This document shows positions 14,156 to 60,896 of a stretch of 64,000 nt of DNA, piece after piece. This DNA comes from an uncultured Pseudomonadota bacterium (GTDB lineage: Bacteria > Oederibacteriota > Muellerivitia > Muellerivitales > Muellerivitaceae). Within the stretch, counting starts at the first letter, position 1. Every line of letters starts with the position of its first letter. The stretch is taken from positions 49,191 to 113,190 of the forward strand of contig CAWIIP010000001.1 in assembly GCA_963836235.1 (NCBI GenBank). The letters run 5' to 3'. The notes under the pieces are model-generated. The model was not told where the DNA came from. It searched no databases and saw only the letters and a program-made list of their open reading frames with translations. Position numbers and translations under genes: made by a program.

Positions 14156-14238
14156 ATGAACATTAGAACGCAGATAAAAAATGAGTTAAATTCGGCTAAA
14201 ACTTGATAAAATTTGAGGCATCTGACGGGAGGTTGGAT

Positions 14239-14817
14239 TTGAAAAAACAGGGTTTTGGATGGTTGGTCACGGTATTGGCCTTAGGTTGTCTCATGGGGGG
14301 CAAGGATTCCAAGGTCTTTGGTGACACGGAAATCAATTTGGACGATGCTCTTCAGCCGACCTCGACTCCCGTCGTCTCCAAATCCAGTTCGGCCAAGCCG
14401 GCCGCGATGCCAACGGCCATTCCGACCGCCGCGCCCGTGCCCACGGCGGTCATTCAAGTTATGCAGGCGGCTCCCACACCCACGGAAGCCGTCGAGGATG
14501 ATTCAACCCCCGTTATTGTCCATGGGGTCTTGAAGATGAAGGACGTCTATGAGGCGGGCATCAAGGCCTATAAGGAGCAGGATTACGACAAGGCGATTCG
14601 TTACCTTAAAAAATCCTTGGAAATGGATGATCCCTATTCCGCCAAATTTTATTTCGCTGAGGCCAACGCCATGTTGGGGGTCATCTACCAATTTCACATC
14701 ATTCATTATAGTTGGGCCTACCGCTATTACCAGGCGGCCCTGAAGTACGAAAAGAAGAACCGGACAGCCCGCCGGCACATCAAGGAAGTCGCCAAATACA
14801 GGCATCAAAAAGGTTGA
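14239..14817 (+). CDS. Hypothetical secreted/lipoprotein with Pro/Thr/Ala-rich linker and C-terminal TPR-like domain (paralog A)
   Basis: Probable TTG start at 14239 (SD GGGAGG 6 nt upstream) giving signal peptide MKKQGFGWLVTVLALGC; low-complexity P/T/A linker; C-terminal TPR-like module …YFAEANAMLGVIYQFH… shared with the next gene. Function unknown. Confidence 0.5.
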   Translation: MKKQGFGWLVTVLALGCLMGGKDSKVFGDTEINLDDALQPTSTPVVSKSSSAKPAAMPTAIPTAAPVPTAVIQVMQAAPTPTEAVEDDSTPVIVHGVLKMKDVYEAGIKAYKEQDYDKAIRYLKKSLEMDDPYSAKFYFAEANAMLGVIYQFHIIHYSWAYRYYQAALKYEKKNRTARRHIKEVAKYRHQKG

Positions 14818-15920
14818 AATTGTTCCAACACCGGCTGGGATGGCGAGTTTTGGTGTTCCTGCTTTTAAGCCAGGCGGCTTTAGCGGACGTGGCTCCCATT
14901 TCCCTCACTTTTTTCGGCTTGTATGGAACGCCCGTCCAACCGGCGGCCTTATCCAGTTCCACGACGAATGGTTTTGGCCTTGACGCCTTAGGCGAGTGGA
15001 ACCCTTCCTATTATTTTTCCCTGGGCCTCAGTTTTGAGCAGGTCACTTTTTACAATTCGATCAATTTTTCCGTACCTATGTTCAATTTGGAAGGCCGGGT
15101 TTTCCCCTTTGAGAACGGGAAAGACAAGTTTTCACCTTATCTTTATGGCGGGGCGGGATTGGACCTCACCGACCCGGGCGGAGCGGCCCAGTTCAAGGCG
15201 GGTATCGGAAGCCGGGTTTCCATCGCAGGGCCTGTTTTCTTTGATATTGCCGCCGGCAGCCATTGGATCCAACCCCCGAACGAGTTTCAATATGTCGACG
15301 TCCGGGCGGGATTAAGCTGTTCCATCGATTTCAAACCAGCCGCCGCGAATTCCCCCACGCCGGCAGCGACTCCCGCCCTGGCTTCCCCCACGCCGCTCGC
15401 CCCAGCTTCCGGTACGCCCACCGTAATGGAGACGCCCACGGCCAGCCAGTCCCCGGAAGAGATCAGCCTGGAAGAGAGCACGACGCCTACCCCCATGCCC
15501 GTGATTGAAGCGGCGCCCGTGACCACCATCGCCGGGGTCAAAAAATACTACAAGTTGGGGATGCAGGCGTTTTTAGCCCAAAATTACAAACTGTCTTTCA
15601 AACTTTTGCATAAGTCTTTGGCCTCGAATGAAATCTTTGGCGCTTCTTATTATTACGCGGAAACTTACGCCACGCTTGGGGTGATCTATCAATTTCATTC
15701 CTCCAAGGTGAAGGATCACGATAAGAAAGCCTTGTTTTGCTACCAAAAGGCGCTGGCCATCGATCCAACAACGAAGTCGGCGAGACATTATTATAAGAAA
15801 CTCAAGGCGAAAATCGCAGCGGAGTCCAAAAAGAAACGCAGGCGCAAATCCGCACCAGTCCCGACTCCCACTGTCTCGGTTTCCACGGATACGAGTGGAT
15901 CGACGACCCCGACGCAATAA
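14814..15920 (+). CDS. Hypothetical secreted protein: beta-barrel-like N-domain + Pro/Thr-rich linker + C-terminal TPR-like domain (paralog B)
   Basis: Probable TTG start around 14814 giving signal peptide (M)KLFQHRLGWRVLVFLLLSQAALA; N-domain with alternating hydrophobic pattern (…YLYGGAGLDL…AGIGSRVSIAG…) consistent with a small outer-membrane beta-barrel; C-terminal …YYYAETYATLGVIYQFH… homologous to paralog A. Start uncertain (ORF track 14712). Confidence 0.5.
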   Translation: MKLFQHRLGWRVLVFLLLSQAALADVAPISLTFFGLYGTPVQPAALSSSTTNGFGLDALGEWNPSYYFSLGLSFEQVTFYNSINFSVPMFNLEGRVFPFENGKDKFSPYLYGGAGLDLTDPGGAAQFKAGIGSRVSIAGPVFFDIAAGSHWIQPPNEFQYVDVRAGLSCSIDFKPAAANSPTPAATPALASPTPLAPASGTPTVMETPTASQSPEEISLEESTTPTPMPVIEAAPVTTIAGVKKYYKLGMQAFLAQNYKLSFKLLHKSLASNEIFGASYYYAETYATLGVIYQFHSSKVKDHDKKALFCYQKALAIDPTTKSARHYYKKLKAKIAAESKKKRRRKSAPVPTPTVSVSTDTSGSTTPTQ

Positions 15921-27774: not shown

Positions 27775-28876
27775 ATGAGATTGGCGTTGTTCGAATTGGA
27801 CGTCAAGTCTCTGGAGAGAAAGTTTACCGAAGTGAGGGATCATCTTTGACCCCGCTCAAGTTAAGCGGGACATAGAGCGGCTCGAAGACCAGACCACCCA
27901 GCCCAAGTTTTGGGACGATCCTAAAAGTGCGCAGTCCGTGACCGCGCAATTGGCCCGGTTGAAAGACACCATGGCCTTGGTGCAGGATTTCGAGAAACAA
28001 TATCACGACCTGCTCACCTATAACGAATTGCTTAAGGAACAGCACGATCCCACCCTGATCGCCGAAATGGAGCAAAGCCACAAGAAGTTCGAAACGGACT
28101 TTCGCAACTTCGAGCTCAAGCGGAATTTCAGCGGCAAGTATGACTTCAATAACGCCTATGTTTCCATTCATCCCGGGGCGGGAGGCACGGAAAGCCAGGA
28201 CTGGGCTTCCATGCTTTTGCGCATGTACCTGCGGTGGATGGAATCCAAAGGCTATGAGGTAGAAACGCTCGATTACCAGGTGGCGGAAGAGGCGGGCATC
28301 AAATCCGTGTCCCTTTTCGTAAAAGGGCCCTGGGCCTATGGCTTTCTCAAAGTTGAGAAGGGTGTCCACCGATTGGTCCGTATTTCTCCCTTTGACGCCA
28401 ATAAACGCCGTCATACTTCCTTTTCTTCCGTCGACGTCATGCCGGAAGTGGACGATGTGGAGTTTGAACTAAGATGGGACGACATTAAGTTCGATACCTT
28501 TCGTTCGGGCGGCAAGGGAGGCCAGAACGTCAATAAGGTCGAGACGGCGGTAAGACTGACCCACATCCCCACGGGCCTCATTGTGGCCTGTCAGACCCAG
28601 CGCTCCCAGCTTCAAAATAAGGAACAGGCGTTGAAGATGTTGAAGGCCAAATTGTTCCAATATCACCAGGACCTGCATGACGAGGAGATGTCGAAGGTCG
28701 CCGGGGCCAAGAAAAAGATCGAGTGGGGAAGCCAGATTCGGTCCTACGTTTTCCAGCCCTACCAAATGGCCAAGGACCACCGCACGAACGTGGAAATGAA
28801 CGATATTAACCGGGTAATGGATGGGGATATCGATCCTTTCATCGAAGCGGCCCTCAAGGCCAAGTTAGTTGATTAA
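27775..28876 (+). CDS. prfB: Peptide chain release factor 2 (requires programmed +1 ribosomal frameshift at codon 25)
   Basis: Frame 0 from ATG 27775 (SD AAAGGTGG upstream) encodes [24 protein letters not shown] then in-frame TGA (27847-27849); +1 frame from 27848 continues [15 protein letters not shown]… into the main ORF with RF2-specific SPF motif (…[15 protein letters not shown]…) and GGQ (…[11 protein letters not shown]…). Confidence 0.85.
27834..27850 (+). promoter_or_regulatory. prfB autoregulatory +1 frameshift site (internal SD + CUU UGA C)
   Basis: Sequence GAGGGAU CAU CUU UGA C: SD-like element 3 nt upstream of the CUU slippery codon followed by UGA-C weak stop context, matching the canonical RF2 recoding site. 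Confidence 0.75.
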
Positions 28877-45206: not shown

Positions 45207-45231
45207 ATTCAACCAGTAAGTGCAACACCTA
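45207..45231. repeat. IS30-family left terminal inverted repeat
   Basis: TTCAACCAGTAAGTGCAACACCTAG; core matches the reverse complement of 46223-46247. Confidence 0.5.
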
Positions 45232-46189
45232 GACGAAAGACCTGCTCCGGCGTTTTGAAGCGAAGGCACTTGCGTGGACGGCTGTTGAGAGCCCGCTCCA
45301 CACGTCGCACGTTCGCTGGAGTTATGGTAGCAAAATCGGTTTTCTTTGGATAGAAGCGCCGCACCAAACCATTAGTGTTTTCGACGGTTCCCTTTTCCCA
45401 ACTGTGGAAAGGAAGACAGAAAAAGGAACGGGTTCCTAAGAGATTGTTAACTTGAAGATGCTCGATGTTTTCAGAGCCGTTGTCGTAAGTAATGGTCCGG
45501 CGTAACCCCTTCGGAAAGAGGGTGAGCCGTCGATTGATAGCTGCTCGTGTTTTCGAAGCGGACTTTTGAGGCAACCAGGCGAGTTTCACGAGGCGGCTTT
45601 TTCGTTCGACCATCACCAAAAGGGAGGCTTTACTTTTTCTGGAGATGATGGTGTCCGCTTCCCAGTGACCAAATTGACGCCGCGTCTGCACGATGGCGGG
45701 TCGTTGAGTGATCGGAGTTCGTTCTGGAATATGGCTTTTTCGATGTTTGTGCGAATGCCATCGGCGAAGCCGCTTTCGATGGGAACGAGCCAAGAGAGGG
45801 ATGAGGTTTCGGGCTTCGGAATAAATGAACTGGTAGACGGCCTCGTGGGAAATGAATAGTTTGGAGTTCTCAAGGCGAAGCTGACCAGCAATTTGTTCGG
45901 GAGAAAACCCCTGATGAAGCTTACGCAAAACATGTTGTCGGATCCCTGGTTTTTTGAGACGCAGATGGGTCCGAGAGAGTTGGTTACGCTGGGTAGATCG
46001 CAGGTGAGCCCGAGCTGGTAGATAACGGCCAGGACGTAAAGGTGGTGCGTTACGCTTCAACTCTCGGGAAACACTGGACACATCACGTTCGAGGCGTCGG
46101 GCGATTTCTCGTATGGAGAGGCCTTCTGCCTTCCAAACTGCGATTTCTTCACGTTCGGCCAACGACAGGTGCTTGTAGGATTGTTTCAT
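45209..46189 (-). CDS. IS30-family DDE transposase
   Basis: 326 aa; N-terminal HTH (…LSLAEREEIAVWKAEGLSIREIARRL…), DDE catalytic core (…HWEADTI…, …ITYDNGSEN…, …SWEKGTVENTNGLVRR…). Confidence 0.85.
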   Translation of the reverse strand: MKQSYKHLSLAEREEIAVWKAEGLSIREIARRLERDVSSVSRELKRNAPPLRPGRYLPARAHLRSTQRNQLSRTHLRLKKPGIRQHVLRKLHQGFSPEQIAGQLRLENSKLFISHEAVYQFIYSEARNLIPLLARSHRKRLRRWHSHKHRKSHIPERTPITQRPAIVQTRRQFGHWEADTIISRKSKASLLVMVERKSRLVKLAWLPQKSASKTRAAINRRLTLFPKGLRRTITYDNGSENIEHLQVNNLLGTRSFFCLPFHSWEKGTVENTNGLVRRFYPKKTDFATITPANVRRVERALNSRPRKCLRFKTPEQVFRLGVALTG

Positions 46190-49018: not shown

Positions 49019-49273
49019 ATGGGCTGGCATGTGAATGTTTATGTGACCTTAAAACCCTCGGTTCAAGATCCCCAAGGAGCCACGGTTCAACGGGCTTTGA
49101 ACCAGATGGGCTATAACGGTGTTTTGGGTGTTCGTATGGGAAAGTTCACGGAATTGGAATTTGACGGGTCTCTTTCCGAATCCGACGTAAAAAAACAGTC
49201 GGATGAAATCTGCGACAAGCTTTTGGCCAACCCCAATATTGAGTCCTATCATTTCACTGTGGAGAAGAAATGA
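49019..49273 (+). CDS. purS: Phosphoribosylformylglycinamidine synthase subunit PurS
   Basis: About 84 aa; [20 protein letters not shown]… typical PurS; SD AAGGAG 7 nt upstream of ATG 49019. Confidence 0.85.
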
Positions 49274-49968
49274 AGTTTTCCGTCACGGTTTTTCCGGGTT
49301 CCAATTGCGATCATGATTGCGAATACGTGATCCGGGATGTCATGGGCCAGAAAGTCGAGATGATCTGGCACAAGGAAACCGACTTAAGGAATCCCGATTG
49401 TGTGGTCGTGCCGGGTGGGTTTTCCTATGGAGATTACCTGCGAACCGGGGCCATCGCCCGGTTTTCCCCGGTGATGAAATCCGTAGCCGATTTCGCCGCC
49501 AAAGGCGGGCTTGTGATCGGTATCTGCAACGGCTTCCAGATACTCTGCGAAGCAGGGCTTTTACCAGGAGCCCTTATCCGTAATAAGACCCTTCAATTTA
49601 TCTGCAAAAATCTCTATATCAAGGTCGAACAGACCGACACGCCTTTCACGAATGCCTGCAAACCGGGGCAGGTCTTGAAAATTCCTATCGCCCATGGCGA
49701 AGGAAACTACTTTATTGATTCGGAAGGTCTTAAGAAGCTTGAGATGAATCGCCAGATCGTTGTTCGCTATTGTGACGCGCAAGGGAAGTTGACCGCCGAA
49801 GCTAATCCCAATGGCTCATTGGAGAATATCGCCGGGATTTGTAACATTGAACGCAATGTTTTTGGGCTAATGCCCCATCCTGATCGTTCCGGCGAGGATA
49901 TTTTGGGCAGCCATGACGGGCAATTTATCTGGAAATCTATTTTGGCCGCCAAGGTAGGCGCATTATGA
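49270..49968 (+). CDS. purQ: Phosphoribosylformylglycinamidine synthase subunit PurQ (glutaminase)
   Basis: Class I glutamine amidotransferase with catalytic Cys (…GICNGFQIL…) and His/Glu (…MPHPDRS…); overlaps purS stop. Confidence 0.88.
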
Positions 49969-51656
49969 GTTCCTCGATCATGGAAGTCGAAATCACCCCC
50001 CAAATTATCAAGGAACATGGCCTCAAACCTGATGAATACGACCGGATTTGCAAGATTCTGAGCCGCAAGCCTAATATCACCGAATTGGGGCTTTATTCGG
50101 TCATGTGGAGCGAGCATTGCGGTTACAAGCATTCCAGGGCCCTTTTGAAAACCCTGCCGACTAAGGGGCCTAAGGTTCTACAGGGGCCCGGCGAAAATGC
50201 CGGCATCGTGGATATTGGCGAAGGTTGGGCGGTTGCTTTTAAGGTGGAATCCCACAACCACCCCTCGGCGATTGAACCTTATCAAGGGGCCGCCACGGGA
50301 GTGGGCGGCATTCTTCGGGATATCTTTACCATGGGCGCCCGGCCCATCGCTTCCTTGAATTCATTGCGGTTTGGTTCTCTCGCGGACCCCAAGGTTAAGA
50401 GGCTTTTTACGGGCGTTGTCAGGGGAATCGCGGACTATGGCAATTGCATGGGTATTCCGACAGTGGCCGGAGAAGTGGTTTTCGATGAAAGCTACTCAGA
50501 GAATTGTCTGGTCAACGCCATGTCGGTCGGATTGGTAAGGCACGAACATATCATCAAAGGGAAAGCCACCGGGGTGGGGAATCCGGTCATCTATATCGGG
50601 GCGACCACGGGGCGGGATGGAATTCATGGCGCAACTTTCGCCTCTACCGAAATAAGCGACGAATCCACCGAAAAGCGGAGCGCAGTCCAGGTCGCTGATC
50701 CCTTTATGGAAAAGCTACTGATGGAAGCCACGTTGGAACTCATCCATAGCGATCTTTTGGTGGGAATTCAGGACATGGGGGCGGCCGGTCTCACCTGTTC
50801 CACCTGTGAAATGGCGAGCCGAGGTGGGGCCGGAATCGAAATCGACGTGGCTAAGGTTCCCAAGCGTGAAAAGGGAATGACGCCTTATGAAATCCTGCTT
50901 TCCGAATCCCAGGAGCGCATGTTGCTCGTGGCAAAGCCGGGTTGTGAACAAAAAGTCCATGATATCTTGGCCAAGTGGGACTTACACGCGGCCACAATTG
51001 GGGTTGTGACGGATACGGGCCGCATGGTGGTGAAGGAAAACGGCAAGGTCGTGGCGGACGTTCCTGCTGATTCCTTGACCGAAGCGCCCGTCTATCATCC
51101 GGCCAAGAGCGAACCGGCGATCTTGAAAAAGCATCGTGAATTCGACGAGTCAAGCGTCCCCACTTCAAAGAATCTGCAGGATGTCCTTGAAAAATTACTT
51201 TCGGATCCAACCATCGCCAGCAAAAGATGGGTTTACCAGCAATACGACCATATGGTCCGTTCCAATTCGCTAGTGCGGCCCGGGTCGGACGCGGCGGTTA
51301 TCCGGGTGAAAGGGACATCATTGGGATTGGCGATGACTATTGACGGATTGGGTTCCTATTGCGCTCTGGACCCTTATGAAGGGGCGAAGATCGTAGTGGC
51401 GGAAGCCGCCCGTAATATCGCCTGTTCCGGGGCCGAACCAATTGGCATGACCGACTGTCTGAATTTTGGAAGCCCTGAAAAACCTGAAGTTTACTACTAT
51501 TTTGACCGTGTCATCGCGGGGTTAGGCGACGCCTGCAGGGCATTTAATATTCCCATCACTGGTGGAAATGTCTCTCTTTACAACGAAAATCCATCGGGTG
51601 CCATTGATCCAACTCCCATCGTTGGGATGATGGGACTTTTTTCCAATGTCGGATAA
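49965..51656 (+). CDS. purL: Phosphoribosylformylglycinamidine synthase subunit PurL - N-terminal 563 codons; reading frame breaks at 51637-51656
   Basis: Clear PurL (FGAM synthase II) sequence; ORF stops prematurely after …[12 protein letters not shown]; PurL continues in the +1 frame from 51646. Confidence 0.85.
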
Positions 51657-52195
51657 AGCCGTGACCCAATGGTTTAAAGAAGAGGGTGATTTTGTTTATT
51701 TGTTAGGAAATATTGGGGATTCCATTGGTGGAAGCCGCTATTTACAGCTCATCCATGGAAAAAAGACTGGGGCTTGTCCTAAATTAGATTTAGAGGTCGA
51801 GTTGAAATTGCATCAAGCCCTGAAGGTTATGGCCGATGAAAAGCTTCTTCAAAGCGCCCACGATTGCTCCGATGGGGGTTTTGCTGTGGCTTTAGCTGAA
51901 TGCTGTGTGACGGGCTTAACCCATGAGGCGAAAACCCAGGGGGCCAAAGCTACTTTGCCGGGTACGGGACGGTTGGATGGCCGCCTTTTTGGGGAAGCTC
52001 AATCGAGAGCGATTGTTTCTTGTAAACCCGACTCTGGGGCCTCAAGTTGAAGCTCAGGCCCGGAAATTAGGCGTACCTTGCGTCAAAATCGGTCAAGTCG
52101 GCGGGGATTCTTTGGTGATTGAAAATGTAATCAAGGCACCCGTCAACCTATTGGCGGATTTGTTTTTCACTAGCATTGAAAAGATGATGGCCTAG
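51646..52195 (+). pseudogene. purL: purL C-terminal remainder split over two further frames (frameshifted gene or sequence indels)
   Basis: 51646-52050 encodes PurL-like …[31 protein letters not shown]…SAHDCSDGGFAVALAE…; a second +1 shift near the G-run at 52035-52038 leads into …PQVEAQARKLGVPCVKIGQVGGDSLVIE… (51923-52195). Removing one T from the T6 run (51637-51642) and one G from the G4 run restores a single ORF of about 740 aa. Confidence 0.7.
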
Positions 52196-52214
52196 CCATT
52201 TAAAGGAGCCACCT

Positions 52215-53516
52215 GTGTCTCAGATGTTAGAGGATGATAAGCCCCACGATCAGTGCGGTGTTTTCGGCGTCTTCGGTCATCCCGAGGCGGCTAAGATCAC
52301 CTATTTAGGTTTGCATTCACTCCAGCATCGGGGCCAAGAATCCGCGGGTATTTGCACGATGGATGAGGGACGCCTTTATAACCACAAGCGGATGGGTTTG
52401 GTCGCGGACATTTTTGACGAGACTGCGTTTAAAGAATTACCTGGGAAGACGGCTATCGGCCATGTGCGATATTCCACCACTGGGTCCAGCCAATTGAGAA
52501 ACGCCCAGCCCATCGCCGTTGAGTACGCACGGGGCAGTATCGCCATCGCCCACAACGGAAACCTGGTCAACGCTCGCCGCATCCGAGACGAATTGGAAGC
52601 CCGAGGTTCCATTTTTGTTTCCACCGTTGATTCAGAAGTCATCGTGCATCTTTTGGCCCGTTCTACCAACCACACCTTGATCGAGGGAGTCATCGAGTCC
52701 TTAAAGCAAGTGAGGGGAGCCTATTCGCTTCTCATCTTGTCCGATGACGGCATGTTGGGTATGCGGGATCCCCATGGTTTCCGGCCTCTTTGTCTGGGCA
52801 AGCTGGGGGATTCCTATGTTTTGGCCAGCGAGACCTGTGCATTTGATATTGTCGACGCCAAATACATCCGTGATGTGGAACCGGGGGAAATCGTTCTTAT
52901 CAATGAGAATGGCTTGGTTTCCATTAAGCCATTCGAGAAAATCCAGTCGGCCATGTGTATTTTCGAATTTATCTATTTTGCTAGACCTGATTCCCGTATT
53001 TACGATACCAGCGTGCAAAAAGTAAGAAAGCGGCTGGGAGCCATTTTGGCGCAGGAAGCTTATGTCGAAGCTGACGTGGTTGTTCCGGTCCCCGATTCTT
53101 CCAACATGGCGGCTACAGGTTACGCGGAAGAAGCCAAAATTCCCTATGAAATGGGGCTCATCCGCAACCATTACATCGGACGAACCTTCATCGAGCCGGA
53201 TCAAGCCATCCGTGACTTCGGTGCCCGTTTAAAATACAACCCGGTTCGGGAGGCCATGGAAGGAAAGCGAGTCATCCTCATCGACGATTCCATCGTCCGG
53301 GGAACAACAATGCGTAAGATCGTCAAAATGATCCGAAATGTTGGGGCCAAAGAGGTGCATCTTGCGCATCACCTCGCCGCCCATTATTTCACCTTGTTTT
53401 TACGGAATGGACTTTCCAAGCCGGAAGGAGCTTATCGCGGCCACCCACAGCCTGGAAGAGATCAAAACCTATCTTACGGGTCGACAGTCTTTCTTATTTA
53501 TCAGTGGATGGAATGA
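52215..53516 (+). CDS. purF: Amidophosphoribosyltransferase PurF - frame correct to about 53363, then disrupted
   Basis: GTG start with SD AAGGAG; propeptide then catalytic Cys in …DQCGVFGVFG…; PRPP-binding region …VILIDDSIVRGTT…. After …GAKEVHL the authentic PurF sequence continues in the +1 frame. Confidence 0.85.
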   Translation: MSQMLEDDKPHDQCGVFGVFGHPEAAKITYLGLHSLQHRGQESAGICTMDEGRLYNHKRMGLVADIFDETAFKELPGKTAIGHVRYSTTGSSQLRNAQPIAVEYARGSIAIAHNGNLVNARRIRDELEARGSIFVSTVDSEVIVHLLARSTNHTLIEGVIESLKQVRGAYSLLILSDDGMLGMRDPHGFRPLCLGKLGDSYVLASETCAFDIVDAKYIRDVEPGEIVLINENGLVSIKPFEKIQSAMCIFEFIYFARPDSRIYDTSVQKVRKRLGAILAQEAYVEADVVVPVPDSSNMAATGYAEEAKIPYEMGLIRNHYIGRTFIEPDQAIRDFGARLKYNPVREAMEGKRVILIDDSIVRGTTMRKIVKMIRNVGAKEVHLAHHLAAHYFTLFLRNGLSKPEGAYRGHPQPGRDQNLSYGSTVFLIYQWME

Positions 53517-53632
53517 TGAAAGCCGTTGAAGGAACCCCTCAGGGTCATTGTGCGGCCTGCTTTACGGCTAAGTATCCGGTTCCTTTTGATGAGGAGACAG
53601 AAAAGTACAGTCTCGAAGTCTCCAAGTGTTGA
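53338..53632 (+). pseudogene. purF: purF C-terminal remainder in two further frames (two +1 frame breaks)
   Basis: +1 frame from about 53365 reads RITSPPIISPCFYGMDFPSRKELIAATHSLEEIKTYL (PurF Fe-S cluster region); a second +1 shift near 53470 reads …VDSLSYLSVDGMMKAVEGTPQGHCAACFTAKYPV… to stop at 53630-53632. Confidence 0.7.
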
Positions 53633-53698
53633 AGAACGGTAGTTTTTAACAATAGTTTTCCGGAAGAAACTACCCGGTTACGGCCTTTTTCCTTGGCT

Positions 53699-54919
53699 TC
53701 ATATAGTGAATGGTCGGCTCGTTTGATAACCTCTTCCGGAGTTTTCCGGGCCTTTTCCGGCAAAAGCTACTCCCGCGCTAAAGGTGATGTTTACCTTTTT
53801 GCCCCTATGCTTTTCCTTTTTAAACGGCAGGCTCATTCCTTCGTAGTTCGAGCTTCGTTTGCTGCGCAAGGTAAACTTCCGTTTTTCCATCGTTGCACGG
53901 GCCTTTTCCATCATCTCGACGGCTGATTCCTGGGTGGGGCCTTCGAAAATCACGCAAAATTCTTCACCTCCATAGCGATAAACCCGATCACCGAGGTGTT
54001 CTTGCAGATGTTGGGCAACCATTCTGAGCACATTATCACCCTCGGCATGTCCATAGGTATCATTGAACTTCTTAAAATGGTCGATATCGACCATGGCGAG
54101 GGCGTAATGGCCTGAAAGGGTATGAAGGCGCTCATCCATGGCCTGCCGGTTGGAAACAGCGGTAAGGGGGTCCAAATAAACCTTCTGCACGTACATCCGA
54201 AACAGGGCAAAAAGCAGGATACCGTCATGGTGGCAAAGGCGATAATGATGTGGGAAACCAGGGATATCCTGGTGGTCGAGTTGCCATTGATGAGGTTGGC
54301 CTGGATACAAAAGAGGAAGGGAACAAAAGTGGTCATAAGAGCAATCAGGAAGGGTTTGATTTTGAGATCCGGTAGATAAGTAACGACCAAAAGGAATAAG
54401 CCGGTAGCGACCCAGGAAAACTTAGGAAGGGATGTTAATTGGGTAGGAACGGCCTGTCCCCAGAAGAAAAGCTTCTGGTAGATATCCGGGGCCCAACTGA
54501 AAAGGCAGATGAAAAGCAGAAGGGGGAAGAGAGCCAAGAGGAACCGGGCCAGGCTGAGATCGCTCCAAAGACGGCTTTCCTTTAAGAGGTAGATGACGCA
54601 GAGCGCCAGGGGATAGGCCACACTGACAATCTGAAGGGTTTGAGGCCCAGCCCGTGGCCGTGACGGTAAAGGTATCAGGATGAAGGAGATAATAGTAAAA
54701 AGCCAAGAGAAGTATGGTGGACCAAAAGATACGGGTTTGGTTGATTTGCCAGCCCAGGATAGCAATCACGGTGAGGCCCACATAGGGAGCGAAAATGAGG
54801 AAGTCGGTAATGGCCCGATGTGAAACTATTTCAGGACTTAGTGGGGGAAGAAAATAGAAAAAAAGGGGAATGAAACAAACTAAAAGATAGATACCGGCCC
54901 ATTTGGCTTTTTCGGACAC
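53699..54919 (-). pseudogene. Membrane-anchored diguanylate cyclase (multi-TM N-domain + GGDEF), reading frame split into three overlapping frames
   Basis: 54919-54422 and 54765-53950 encode consecutive hydrophobic TM segments in two frames; 54310-53699 encodes a GGDEF domain (…DPLTAVSNRQAMDE…, …RYGGEEFCVIFEG…). Either an authentic pseudogene or two indels in the sequence. Confidence 0.6.
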
Positions 54920-55069
54920 GTTTGATCCTTAAAGGGAATTGAAAGAAGAATGGCTTAATTTAATGGTCCTTGGGTTATTTGTAAATGAAAGTCGGTCGAA
55001 CGAAAGAGGGTGTTGGGAAGCTTTTCGAGGGTATATTGGACGGATGTAATCCTAATCATTTTGTAATGG

Positions 55070-55558
55070 ATGGTTTTCTCGATGGGGTTGTTTAATTTTT
55101 TCTCTAAGCGAAAAATTTATGAAAATGCCAATCTTGAAAAAGTAATGATGGAAATGTCGCTTCGTCCGGTCATGAAAACAAGGCGAGTTTTATACGCGGA
55201 ATTATTGAAAAGCACTCTACTTCTTCCCACTCCCAGTCCATTGGAATCTTCTACATTCGAAACATCTTTAAAAGAGATTCAACTGGTGACCCAGCCTGGG
55301 CCCAAGAATGAGTTGGTTTGGATTGCCTTTACCAGTAAGGAGGCCCTTCGACAGTGGCGGCCTCAATTTGAGGATGCTTATGTAGCCATCCAAGGAACCC
55401 TTTTATTCGCGTTGGCGGTCCAAAACCGAGTGGAAAATATCTTGATCAATCTTGCGGGACCAGTGAGTGGGAAAATCACTGGAATGGAATTGCAAATGCT
55501 TGCGGAAGGGATTTTGCCGAGGGATGAGGACGGCAATACCAAAAACACTAAAGCCTAG
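55070..55558 (+). CDS. Hypothetical protein, SseB-like
   Basis: 162-aa soluble protein; pattern (…LLLPTPSP…ELVWIAFTSKEALRQW…) resembles the SseB N-terminal domain family; low confidence, from memory of the family only. Confidence 0.35.
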   Translation: MVFSMGLFNFFSKRKIYENANLEKVMMEMSLRPVMKTRRVLYAELLKSTLLLPTPSPLESSTFETSLKEIQLVTQPGPKNELVWIAFTSKEALRQWRPQFEDAYVAIQGTLLFALAVQNRVENILINLAGPVSGKITGMELQMLAEGILPRDEDGNTKNTKA

Positions 55559-60344: not shown

Positions 60345-60896
60345 GTGAAAGAAACCCCGTTGTTACCGCAGATTATTAAAACTTCTAAATCTGCAAGGTT
60401 ATTTGGTGGAATTGGGTCTGCGATTTTGATTTTCTTTATATTCCTTATCCCTTTGTTTGCATTGAAACCGCTTGGTTTAAATGACCTTTTGATGGTCGCT
60501 TTTGGCCTTTGTTCTTTGGCTTTATTACTTTTGCTGAAATGTTTTCAAAGTGTTCATTGTTCAGAAGAAGGGCTGGAGTTTTTTAAACTTATTTTTAAAA
60601 CAAAGAAAATATTATGGGATGAAATAGAGAAAGCGGAATTTGTTCGAAAAACAGGTTCTTATCAACTGACCTTTTATCCATATTCCATTATAAAATTTAC
60701 TGTTAAAGATGGTGGAAGTTTTGAATTGGTAAACAGCATTTTTTTTAACTTGAAGGATGTTTTGATCATTTGCGATTTGTTGAAAATGAAAGCGTTTAAT
60801 GCTGATGTGAATATCGATTCAAAGATGGTGGCGAAAGAGTTTGTTGTTGAAAAAAATTATGGAAATGGTGAGAGAAAATGTCTGAAGACAAAGTGA
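60345..60896 (+). CDS. Hypothetical membrane protein (2 TM + PH-like soluble domain), AT-rich orphan
   Basis: AT-rich codon usage unlike flanking pur genes; two N-terminal TM helices then about 110-aa domain resembling bacterial PH (YdbT-like) folds; overlaps purH start by 19 nt. Confidence 0.4.
   Translation: MKETPLLPQIIKTSKSARLFGGIGSAILIFFIFLIPLFALKPLGLNDLLMVAFGLCSLALLLLLKCFQSVHCSEEGLEFFKLIFKTKKILWDEIEKAEFVRKTGSYQLTFYPYSIIKFTVKDGGSFELVNSIFFNLKDVLIICDLLKMKAFNADVNIDSKMVAKEFVVEKNYGNGERKCLKTK

Follow-up and report, generated by a model that had tools for sequence, protein, structure and literature searches.

Gene-fragmenting insertion and deletion (indel) errors in long-read assemblies were reportedly highlighted by Watson and Warr in Nature Biotechnology in 2019. 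In published accounts such errors take the form of single-nucleotide (1-nt) indels that split conserved genes and are commoner at low coverage (10.1101/2021.08.23.457338; Kastor, PMC12007338; Sereika 2022, PMC9262707; PMC12313526), and short-read polishing with poor mapping is a further source, leaving local islands of uncorrected indels in accurate assemblies (Polypolish, PMC8812927). Curated bacterial pseudogenes, for their part, contain insertions and deletions in a ratio of 300:396, with 1-nt deletions making up 131 of the 396 (PMC6054270). Here we consider three adjacent genes—purL, purF and a gene for a membrane-anchored diguanylate cyclase of the GGDEF type—that are each broken in frame within a 64-kb stretch of DNA (‘the window’ throughout). 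Comparison with relatives indicates that these breaks are very probably a local consensus artefact in the contig of a long-read-type metagenome-assembled genome (MAG), not mutations carried by the organism itself, in which all three genes are most likely in working order.

When species-representative genomes were scanned, the window fell in candidate division FCPU426, its PurL being 88–93% identical to that of MAGs from soil and peat. Gene calls were taken from the open reading frame (ORF) listing of the given sequence, and the relatives used for comparison were L002, L004 (an Illumina MAG from palsa), L007 (a Nanopore MAG; CAWJKT010000003.1, MFD05512.bin.2.30), L099, and the JGI metagenome contigs L108 (Ga0364881_10218) and L109; gene order is collinear with the relatives from approximately 38.8 to 62.4 kb. 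The closest intact relative, L109, is 86% identical at the nucleotide level (98% for the PurF protein and 93% for the repaired cyclase), followed by L007 at 84% among genome contigs and by L099 and L108 at ~84% among metagenome contigs. The genome-contig, metagenome-contig and protein collections searched yielded no independently assembled sequence from this population, 86% nucleotide identity being the best match in any of them.

We traced the frame path of each gene by tblastn, using as queries the intact proteins of L004, in which purL is a 754-amino-acid (aa) ORF and the other two proteins, PurF and the cyclase, have 484 and 422 aa. The purL gene (FGAM synthase subunit II; 49965..52195, + strand) is present in the deposited sequence as three ORFs (49965..51656, 51646..52050 and 51923..52195), the match passing from frame 3 to frame 1 to frame 2; removal of two inserted bases yields a protein of 742 aa that carries the Pfam domain FGAR-AT_linker plus two AIRS/AIRS_C pairs, and is 87–94% identical to intact orthologues. 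Immediately downstream, purF (amidophosphoribosyltransferase; 52215..53632, + strand) follows the same 3-to-1-to-2 path through ORFs 52215..53516, 53338..53529 and 53504..53632, and gives 471 aa once its own two inserted bases are removed; the relatives listed at >85% identity range from 470 to 486 aa, bar one entry of 423 aa. On the opposite strand, the cyclase gene (53646..54919, − strand) is dispersed over four ORFs (54422..54919, 53950..54765, 53699..54310 and 53545..53763), its path starting in frame −1, leaving it for another, returning to −1 and ending in −2. Corrected to ~420 aa, the cyclase has a hydrophobic N-terminal half that is probably membrane-spanning, and a GGDEF domain that keeps an intact GGEEF motif; P0144, an intact protein of 421 aa, matches it at 93% identity. 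Taking all three genes together, reversing the indels (seven bases out, one in) restores full-length PurL, PurF and cyclase, with no internal stops and with complete sets of Pfam domains. After correction, the spacer between the cyclase gene and purF is only 13 nt in the window; at the equivalent place in L109 (11306–11934) two small extra genes, of 118 aa (with a faint match to Zn_ribbon_3) and 71 aa, lie between the convergent cyclase and purF.

To position the indels we aligned window coordinates 49270–54930 with seven relatives in MAFFT, and then refined each break by scanning for the position at which the protein scored highest against the relatives. We see seven certain indels and one probable one between 51650 and 54645, all of 1 nt, with seven insertions against one deletion; two are in purL, two in purF and four in the GGDEF gene. 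The seven certain indels are unique to the window in this alignment, and the same seven are recovered when L109 alone is compared. An earlier note on this DNA had described six breaks in ~3.3 kb: the three genes are indeed split and the cluster is real, the count being seven for certain and probably eight, since an insertion at 53751–53756 and a probable one at 53649–53670 had been missed. The note's proposal that the orthologous region of relatives be compared has thus proved informative, the indels being peculiar to the window and the orthologues intact bar those of the noisy L007.

The first insertion in purL lies at 51650–51652 (aatgtCGGataa, or GT[C]GG, against aatgt-GGataa in the relatives). 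It had been assigned to the T6 run at 51637–51642, a placement that does not hold, as L007 and L002 also have six T residues here and the residues that follow (GLFSNV) are still in frame. The second purL insertion falls within a variable stretch at 52027–52042, where its placement is ambiguous; the best protein score is obtained at 52040–52042 (ggggCCTcaag). The G4 run at 52035–52038, to which this break had been attributed, may or may not be involved. In purF the insertions map to 53360–53364 (gcaTCTTGcg, the relatives having TC-TG or TT-TG) and to 53472–53477 (ctaTCTTACggg, against TA-CCT or TA-TTT in the relatives), in agreement with the positions near 53364 and 53470 given previously.

In the cyclase gene, all on the − strand, the two breaks formerly placed at about 54700 and 54280 resolve to an insertion at 54643–54645 (gtttgAGGccc, relatives TG-GGCCC) and to the sole deletion, at 54219/54220, which puts the frame back to that of the gene start. 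A further insertion at 53751–53756 (ccgggCCTTTTccgg) cuts off the conserved C-terminal KTPEEVIKRADHSLYEAKEKGRNRV from the GGDEF core. The eighth, probable indel, an insertion among the last codons (53649–53670), comes from a comparison of C-termini: left uncorrected, the frame overruns the terminus of the relatives checked by ~40 codons, antisense into purF, and with one base removed it ends ...NRVVSSENYC (stop), matching TCGGAAAAC of L108. The cyclases of the relatives all stop 4–5 aa past NRxV.

None of the indel sites lies in a homopolymer of 5 nt or longer, and the insertions can each be read as the extension of a run from one base to two, two to three or three to four. We also considered a sequence motif common to the sites, such as a methylation motif, and rejected it: CCGG occurs near two or three of them but is so frequent across the window that it could not account for a cluster of 3 kb. 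The site contexts bear equally on programmed recoding, by which ribosomal frameshifting or transcriptional slippage would restore the proteins from the sequence as it stands. Recoding does exist in this genome, the sole other frame change in the window being the true programmed +1 site of prfB (main ORF 27938..28876, + strand), which has the canonical form AGGGAT CAT CTT TGA C at 27839–27851; the N-terminus is encoded in the upstream frame, which is why the Pfam PCRF match begins at position 29 of the profile. At the eight sites of the cluster, by contrast, there is no slippery or stall motif, the contexts differ from one another, one change is a −1, and not one site is conserved in any relative. 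We know of no precedent for eight recoding events in three genes; the lack of conservation effectively refutes this explanation, to which we attach next to no probability.

The cluster is sharply confined. Were seven or eight events placed at random in the window's 64000 bp, the chance of all of them falling within the same 2995 bp would be 7e-8 or 4e-9, respectively. Upstream, purQ (49270..49968, + strand) is intact at 232 aa, and purL likewise has no indel in its first 1685 nt; downstream, the SseB-like gene (55070..55558, + strand) is intact, with Pfam SseB covered over positions 1–122 of 124. The other orthologues between 38.8 and 62.4 kb each match the window in a single frame. In the comparison with L109 (44.3–64 kb) the remaining gaps are all intergenic or whole-gene differences, and no coding indels of 2 nt, 3 nt or larger were seen. 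Further upstream, the nuo, hem, glgP, pheT, clpC, lysS, lolCDE-like and mcsB genes, among others, have their Pfam domains covered end to end. The claim that the other long genes of the window are intact is thereby borne out, the programmed site of prfB aside. The window contains 41 homopolymers of at least 7 nt, none of which breaks a gene, and the cluster itself contains none of that length. As the cluster begins midway through purL and then crosses strands into a functionally unrelated cyclase, which is affected at the same density, the breaks cluster by position and not by function or pathway.

This geometry could also be explained by one real, localized mutational event—a patch of error-prone repair or recombination—that made all of the indels in a single lineage. 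Such an event would account for the tight clustering, for the indifference to both function and strand, and for the lack of substitutions of the kind that accumulate with time. Yet it would have inactivated two essential biosynthetic genes and nonetheless be present as the population consensus, and the identity profile to relatives has no imported or recombinant segment. We know of no bacterial process that introduces 1-nt insertions alone, free of substitutions, throughout 3 kb at a density of about one per 400 bp, and hold the explanation to be highly improbable. A foreign or chimeric patch was considered separately and rejected, identity to four relatives being flat across the region.

Turning to gene decay, the more familiar reading of the cluster would be that of very recent true pseudogenes, in which the FCPU426 population, or its dominant strain, no longer has working copies of purL, purF and the cyclase gene, owing to true frameshifts, and persists as a purine auxotroph fed by purines from the community. 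The reading frame is disrupted in all three genes: the breaks are present in the deposited sequence and each truncates its protein. Insertions of one base in short runs are, moreover, among the ordinary kinds of spontaneous mutation; those seen here fit run extension. Uncultured soil bacteria are often auxotrophs. Against this, decay would require eight independent events in 3 kb and none in the window's remaining ~8 kb of pur genes, together with an unrelated neighbour hit at equal density. The spectrum is also unlike that of real pseudogenes, being biased to insertions (seven of eight) and uniform in size (1 nt in eight of eight), which departs from the natural spectrum of the curated set introduced above.

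Nor do the repaired genes bear the marks of relaxed selection: stop-gains and larger indels are lacking, and replacements at invariant sites are not in excess. Each repaired protein was compared with 15–27 relatives and changes private to the window were counted at columns otherwise invariant: PurL has none at 370 such columns, PurF none at 266 (27 relatives), and the cyclase two at 87, where the relatives themselves have 0–5. In a smaller alignment the cyclase had seemed to carry too many private substitutions at aa 222–244, an impression that disappeared once the L007/L108 lineage was added; these changes are lineage-specific and not errors. The ratio of non-synonymous to synonymous substitution rates (dN/dS), computed against the nearest intact sequences, is 0.02–0.09 for the corrected segments and 0.015–0.18 for intact neighbours, although dS is near saturation and all that the comparison shows is that any period of neutrality must have been very brief. 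The segments lying out of frame downstream of the breaks are still conserved as under purifying selection. If, on our own estimate, each neutral indel comes with 3–10 substitutions, eight of them would be accompanied by ~24–80, with ~7–22 hits expected under neutrality at the 367 invariant codons of the patch; one is observed (Poisson P ~0.01 or far lower).

The remainder of the pathway agrees. Loss of purL or purF would release the whole of it from selection, so that purB, purQ, purM, purN, purH and purD would be expected to decay too; all six are intact in the window; their domains are full and, in those for which dN/dS was computed, it is low. The earlier note held that error and decay could not be told apart from the sequence. 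It is right in that only reads will settle the matter, but the comparison with relatives does discriminate between the two, and favours a local drop in consensus quality: there is no relaxed selection, the changes are biased to 1-nt insertions and clustered by position, and the other pur genes are intact. Recent pseudogenization of the three genes we accordingly hold to be very unlikely.

A precedent for the preferred reading—consensus error—is found in the sister lineage. Wherever the three genes were checked in relatives they are intact, L109 included, with the exception of the noisy Nanopore MAG L007, which has at least ten frameshifts over the whole 21.7-kb locus, affecting bamA, purB, purQ, purL, purF, the cyclase and a Wzy-like gene. 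L108 is 99.75% identical to L007, with two gaps over 6 kb, and has as single ORFs both the cyclase and the Wzy-like gene that are split in L007; the L007 frameshifts therefore look like artefacts of the kind found in this lineage's long-read MAGs, and its public record appears error-rich. Several of the close relatives are Nanopore MAGs from Microflora Danica, assembled with metaFlye and one round of Medaka, with no short reads, and whose authors note signs of error at low coverage (PMC12313526). An error hotspot common to the window and L007 was considered and dismissed, as the L007 frameshifts are spread over all 21.7 kb. In the protein collection, the truncated PurL (P0139, 563 aa) and PurF (P0134, 430 aa) of the window itself are listed on an NCBI/ENA contig of 576,174 bp, a length typical of long-read MAGs that, for a soil candidate-phylum MAG, suggests a long-read assembly.

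Our proposal, then, is that over ~3 kb (~51.65–54.65 kb) the consensus is very probably far poorer than on either side. Candidate causes would be a dip in read depth, support from very few long reads, a pile-up in which strains are mixed, or a failure of polishing to reach the stretch; the outcome would be random 1-nt indels at ~0.27%, with no detectable substitution errors. This fits what we see, namely small indels whose reversal restores complete proteins, orthologues in the relatives that lack them, and a distribution that follows position.

Saying this, several points weigh on the other side. With the best relative only 86% identical at the nucleotide level, the technical origin, and likewise which technical cause applies, is inferred rather than observed. 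The indels lie outside long homopolymers, the classic site of Nanopore error, and as the window's long runs are all frame-neutral a special local cause has to be assumed. The edges of the patch are unmarked, there being no repeat or tandem repeat, no shift in composition and no change in similarity to the relatives. Finally, very recent real mutations would likewise leave no substitution signal. If the indels are real as well as recent, a soil FCPU426 population would have become newly auxotrophic for purines through a burst of clustered 1-nt insertions; we give this only slender credence, but were it true the burst would point to a localized, insertion-prone mutational process of a new kind, and the locus would stand as a modest example of very recent pathway loss.

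Elsewhere in the window, a suspected frame-broken gene at 14.2–16.4 kb proved to be no such thing: the three overlapping ORFs are separate genes, as indicated by a TTGA stop/start overlap, a start resembling a signal peptide, and paralogous C-terminal ends. Two of these, 14203..14817 and 14814..15920 (+ strand), are adjacent and TTGA-coupled, lack a Pfam match, and share a similar TPR-like C-terminal end (…GVIYQFH…), the signal-peptide-like start belonging to the second; they are probably tandem paralogues. Between bamA and surE, at 45209..46189 (− strand), lies an IS30-like transposase gene (HTH_38 plus rve); ~1.1 kb at this site is missing from L007, L004 and L109, and is therefore an insertion specific to the window genome. 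A 183-aa ORF without a Pfam match (60345..60896, + strand) lies in a 534-nt segment between purN and purH, a segment that is missing from L109.

Taken at face value, the annotation of this locus would describe a candidate-phylum organism that seems to be a purine auxotroph and to lack one diguanylate cyclase, thereby distorting both metabolic reconstructions and pseudogene counts; recognizing the stretch as a patch of error prevents this. A working rule for cases in which reads are not available follows: where frameshifts are all of 1 nt, follow position and not pathway in their clustering, and leave a repaired protein whose conservation is perfect, they should be taken for errors of the consensus. 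The finding is of low biological interest, but it is a useful warning for annotation.

Set against the systems with which we began, the locus most resembles the errors of long-read (Nanopore or PacBio) assemblies, with adjacent split ORFs, full-length proteins on correction and intact orthologues, the contrast between L007 and L108 being a direct parallel; it departs from the usual residual errors of Nanopore data in being confined to a single 3-kb patch, biased to insertions and located outside long homopolymers. It differs too from the islands left by poorly mapping polishing reads, in that no repeat or duplicated sequence within the window marks the patch. With the pseudogenes of reductive evolution it has in common several frameshifts per gene and an affected biosynthetic pathway; the excess of deletions, the broad range of sizes, the accumulation of non-synonymous changes and the pathway-wide decay that characterize such pseudogenes (PMC6054270) are all absent from the window. 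Lastly, prfB (RF2) shares with the three genes a +1 change inside a functional gene, but is set apart from them by its conserved CTT TGA C and its upstream Shine-Dalgarno-like element.

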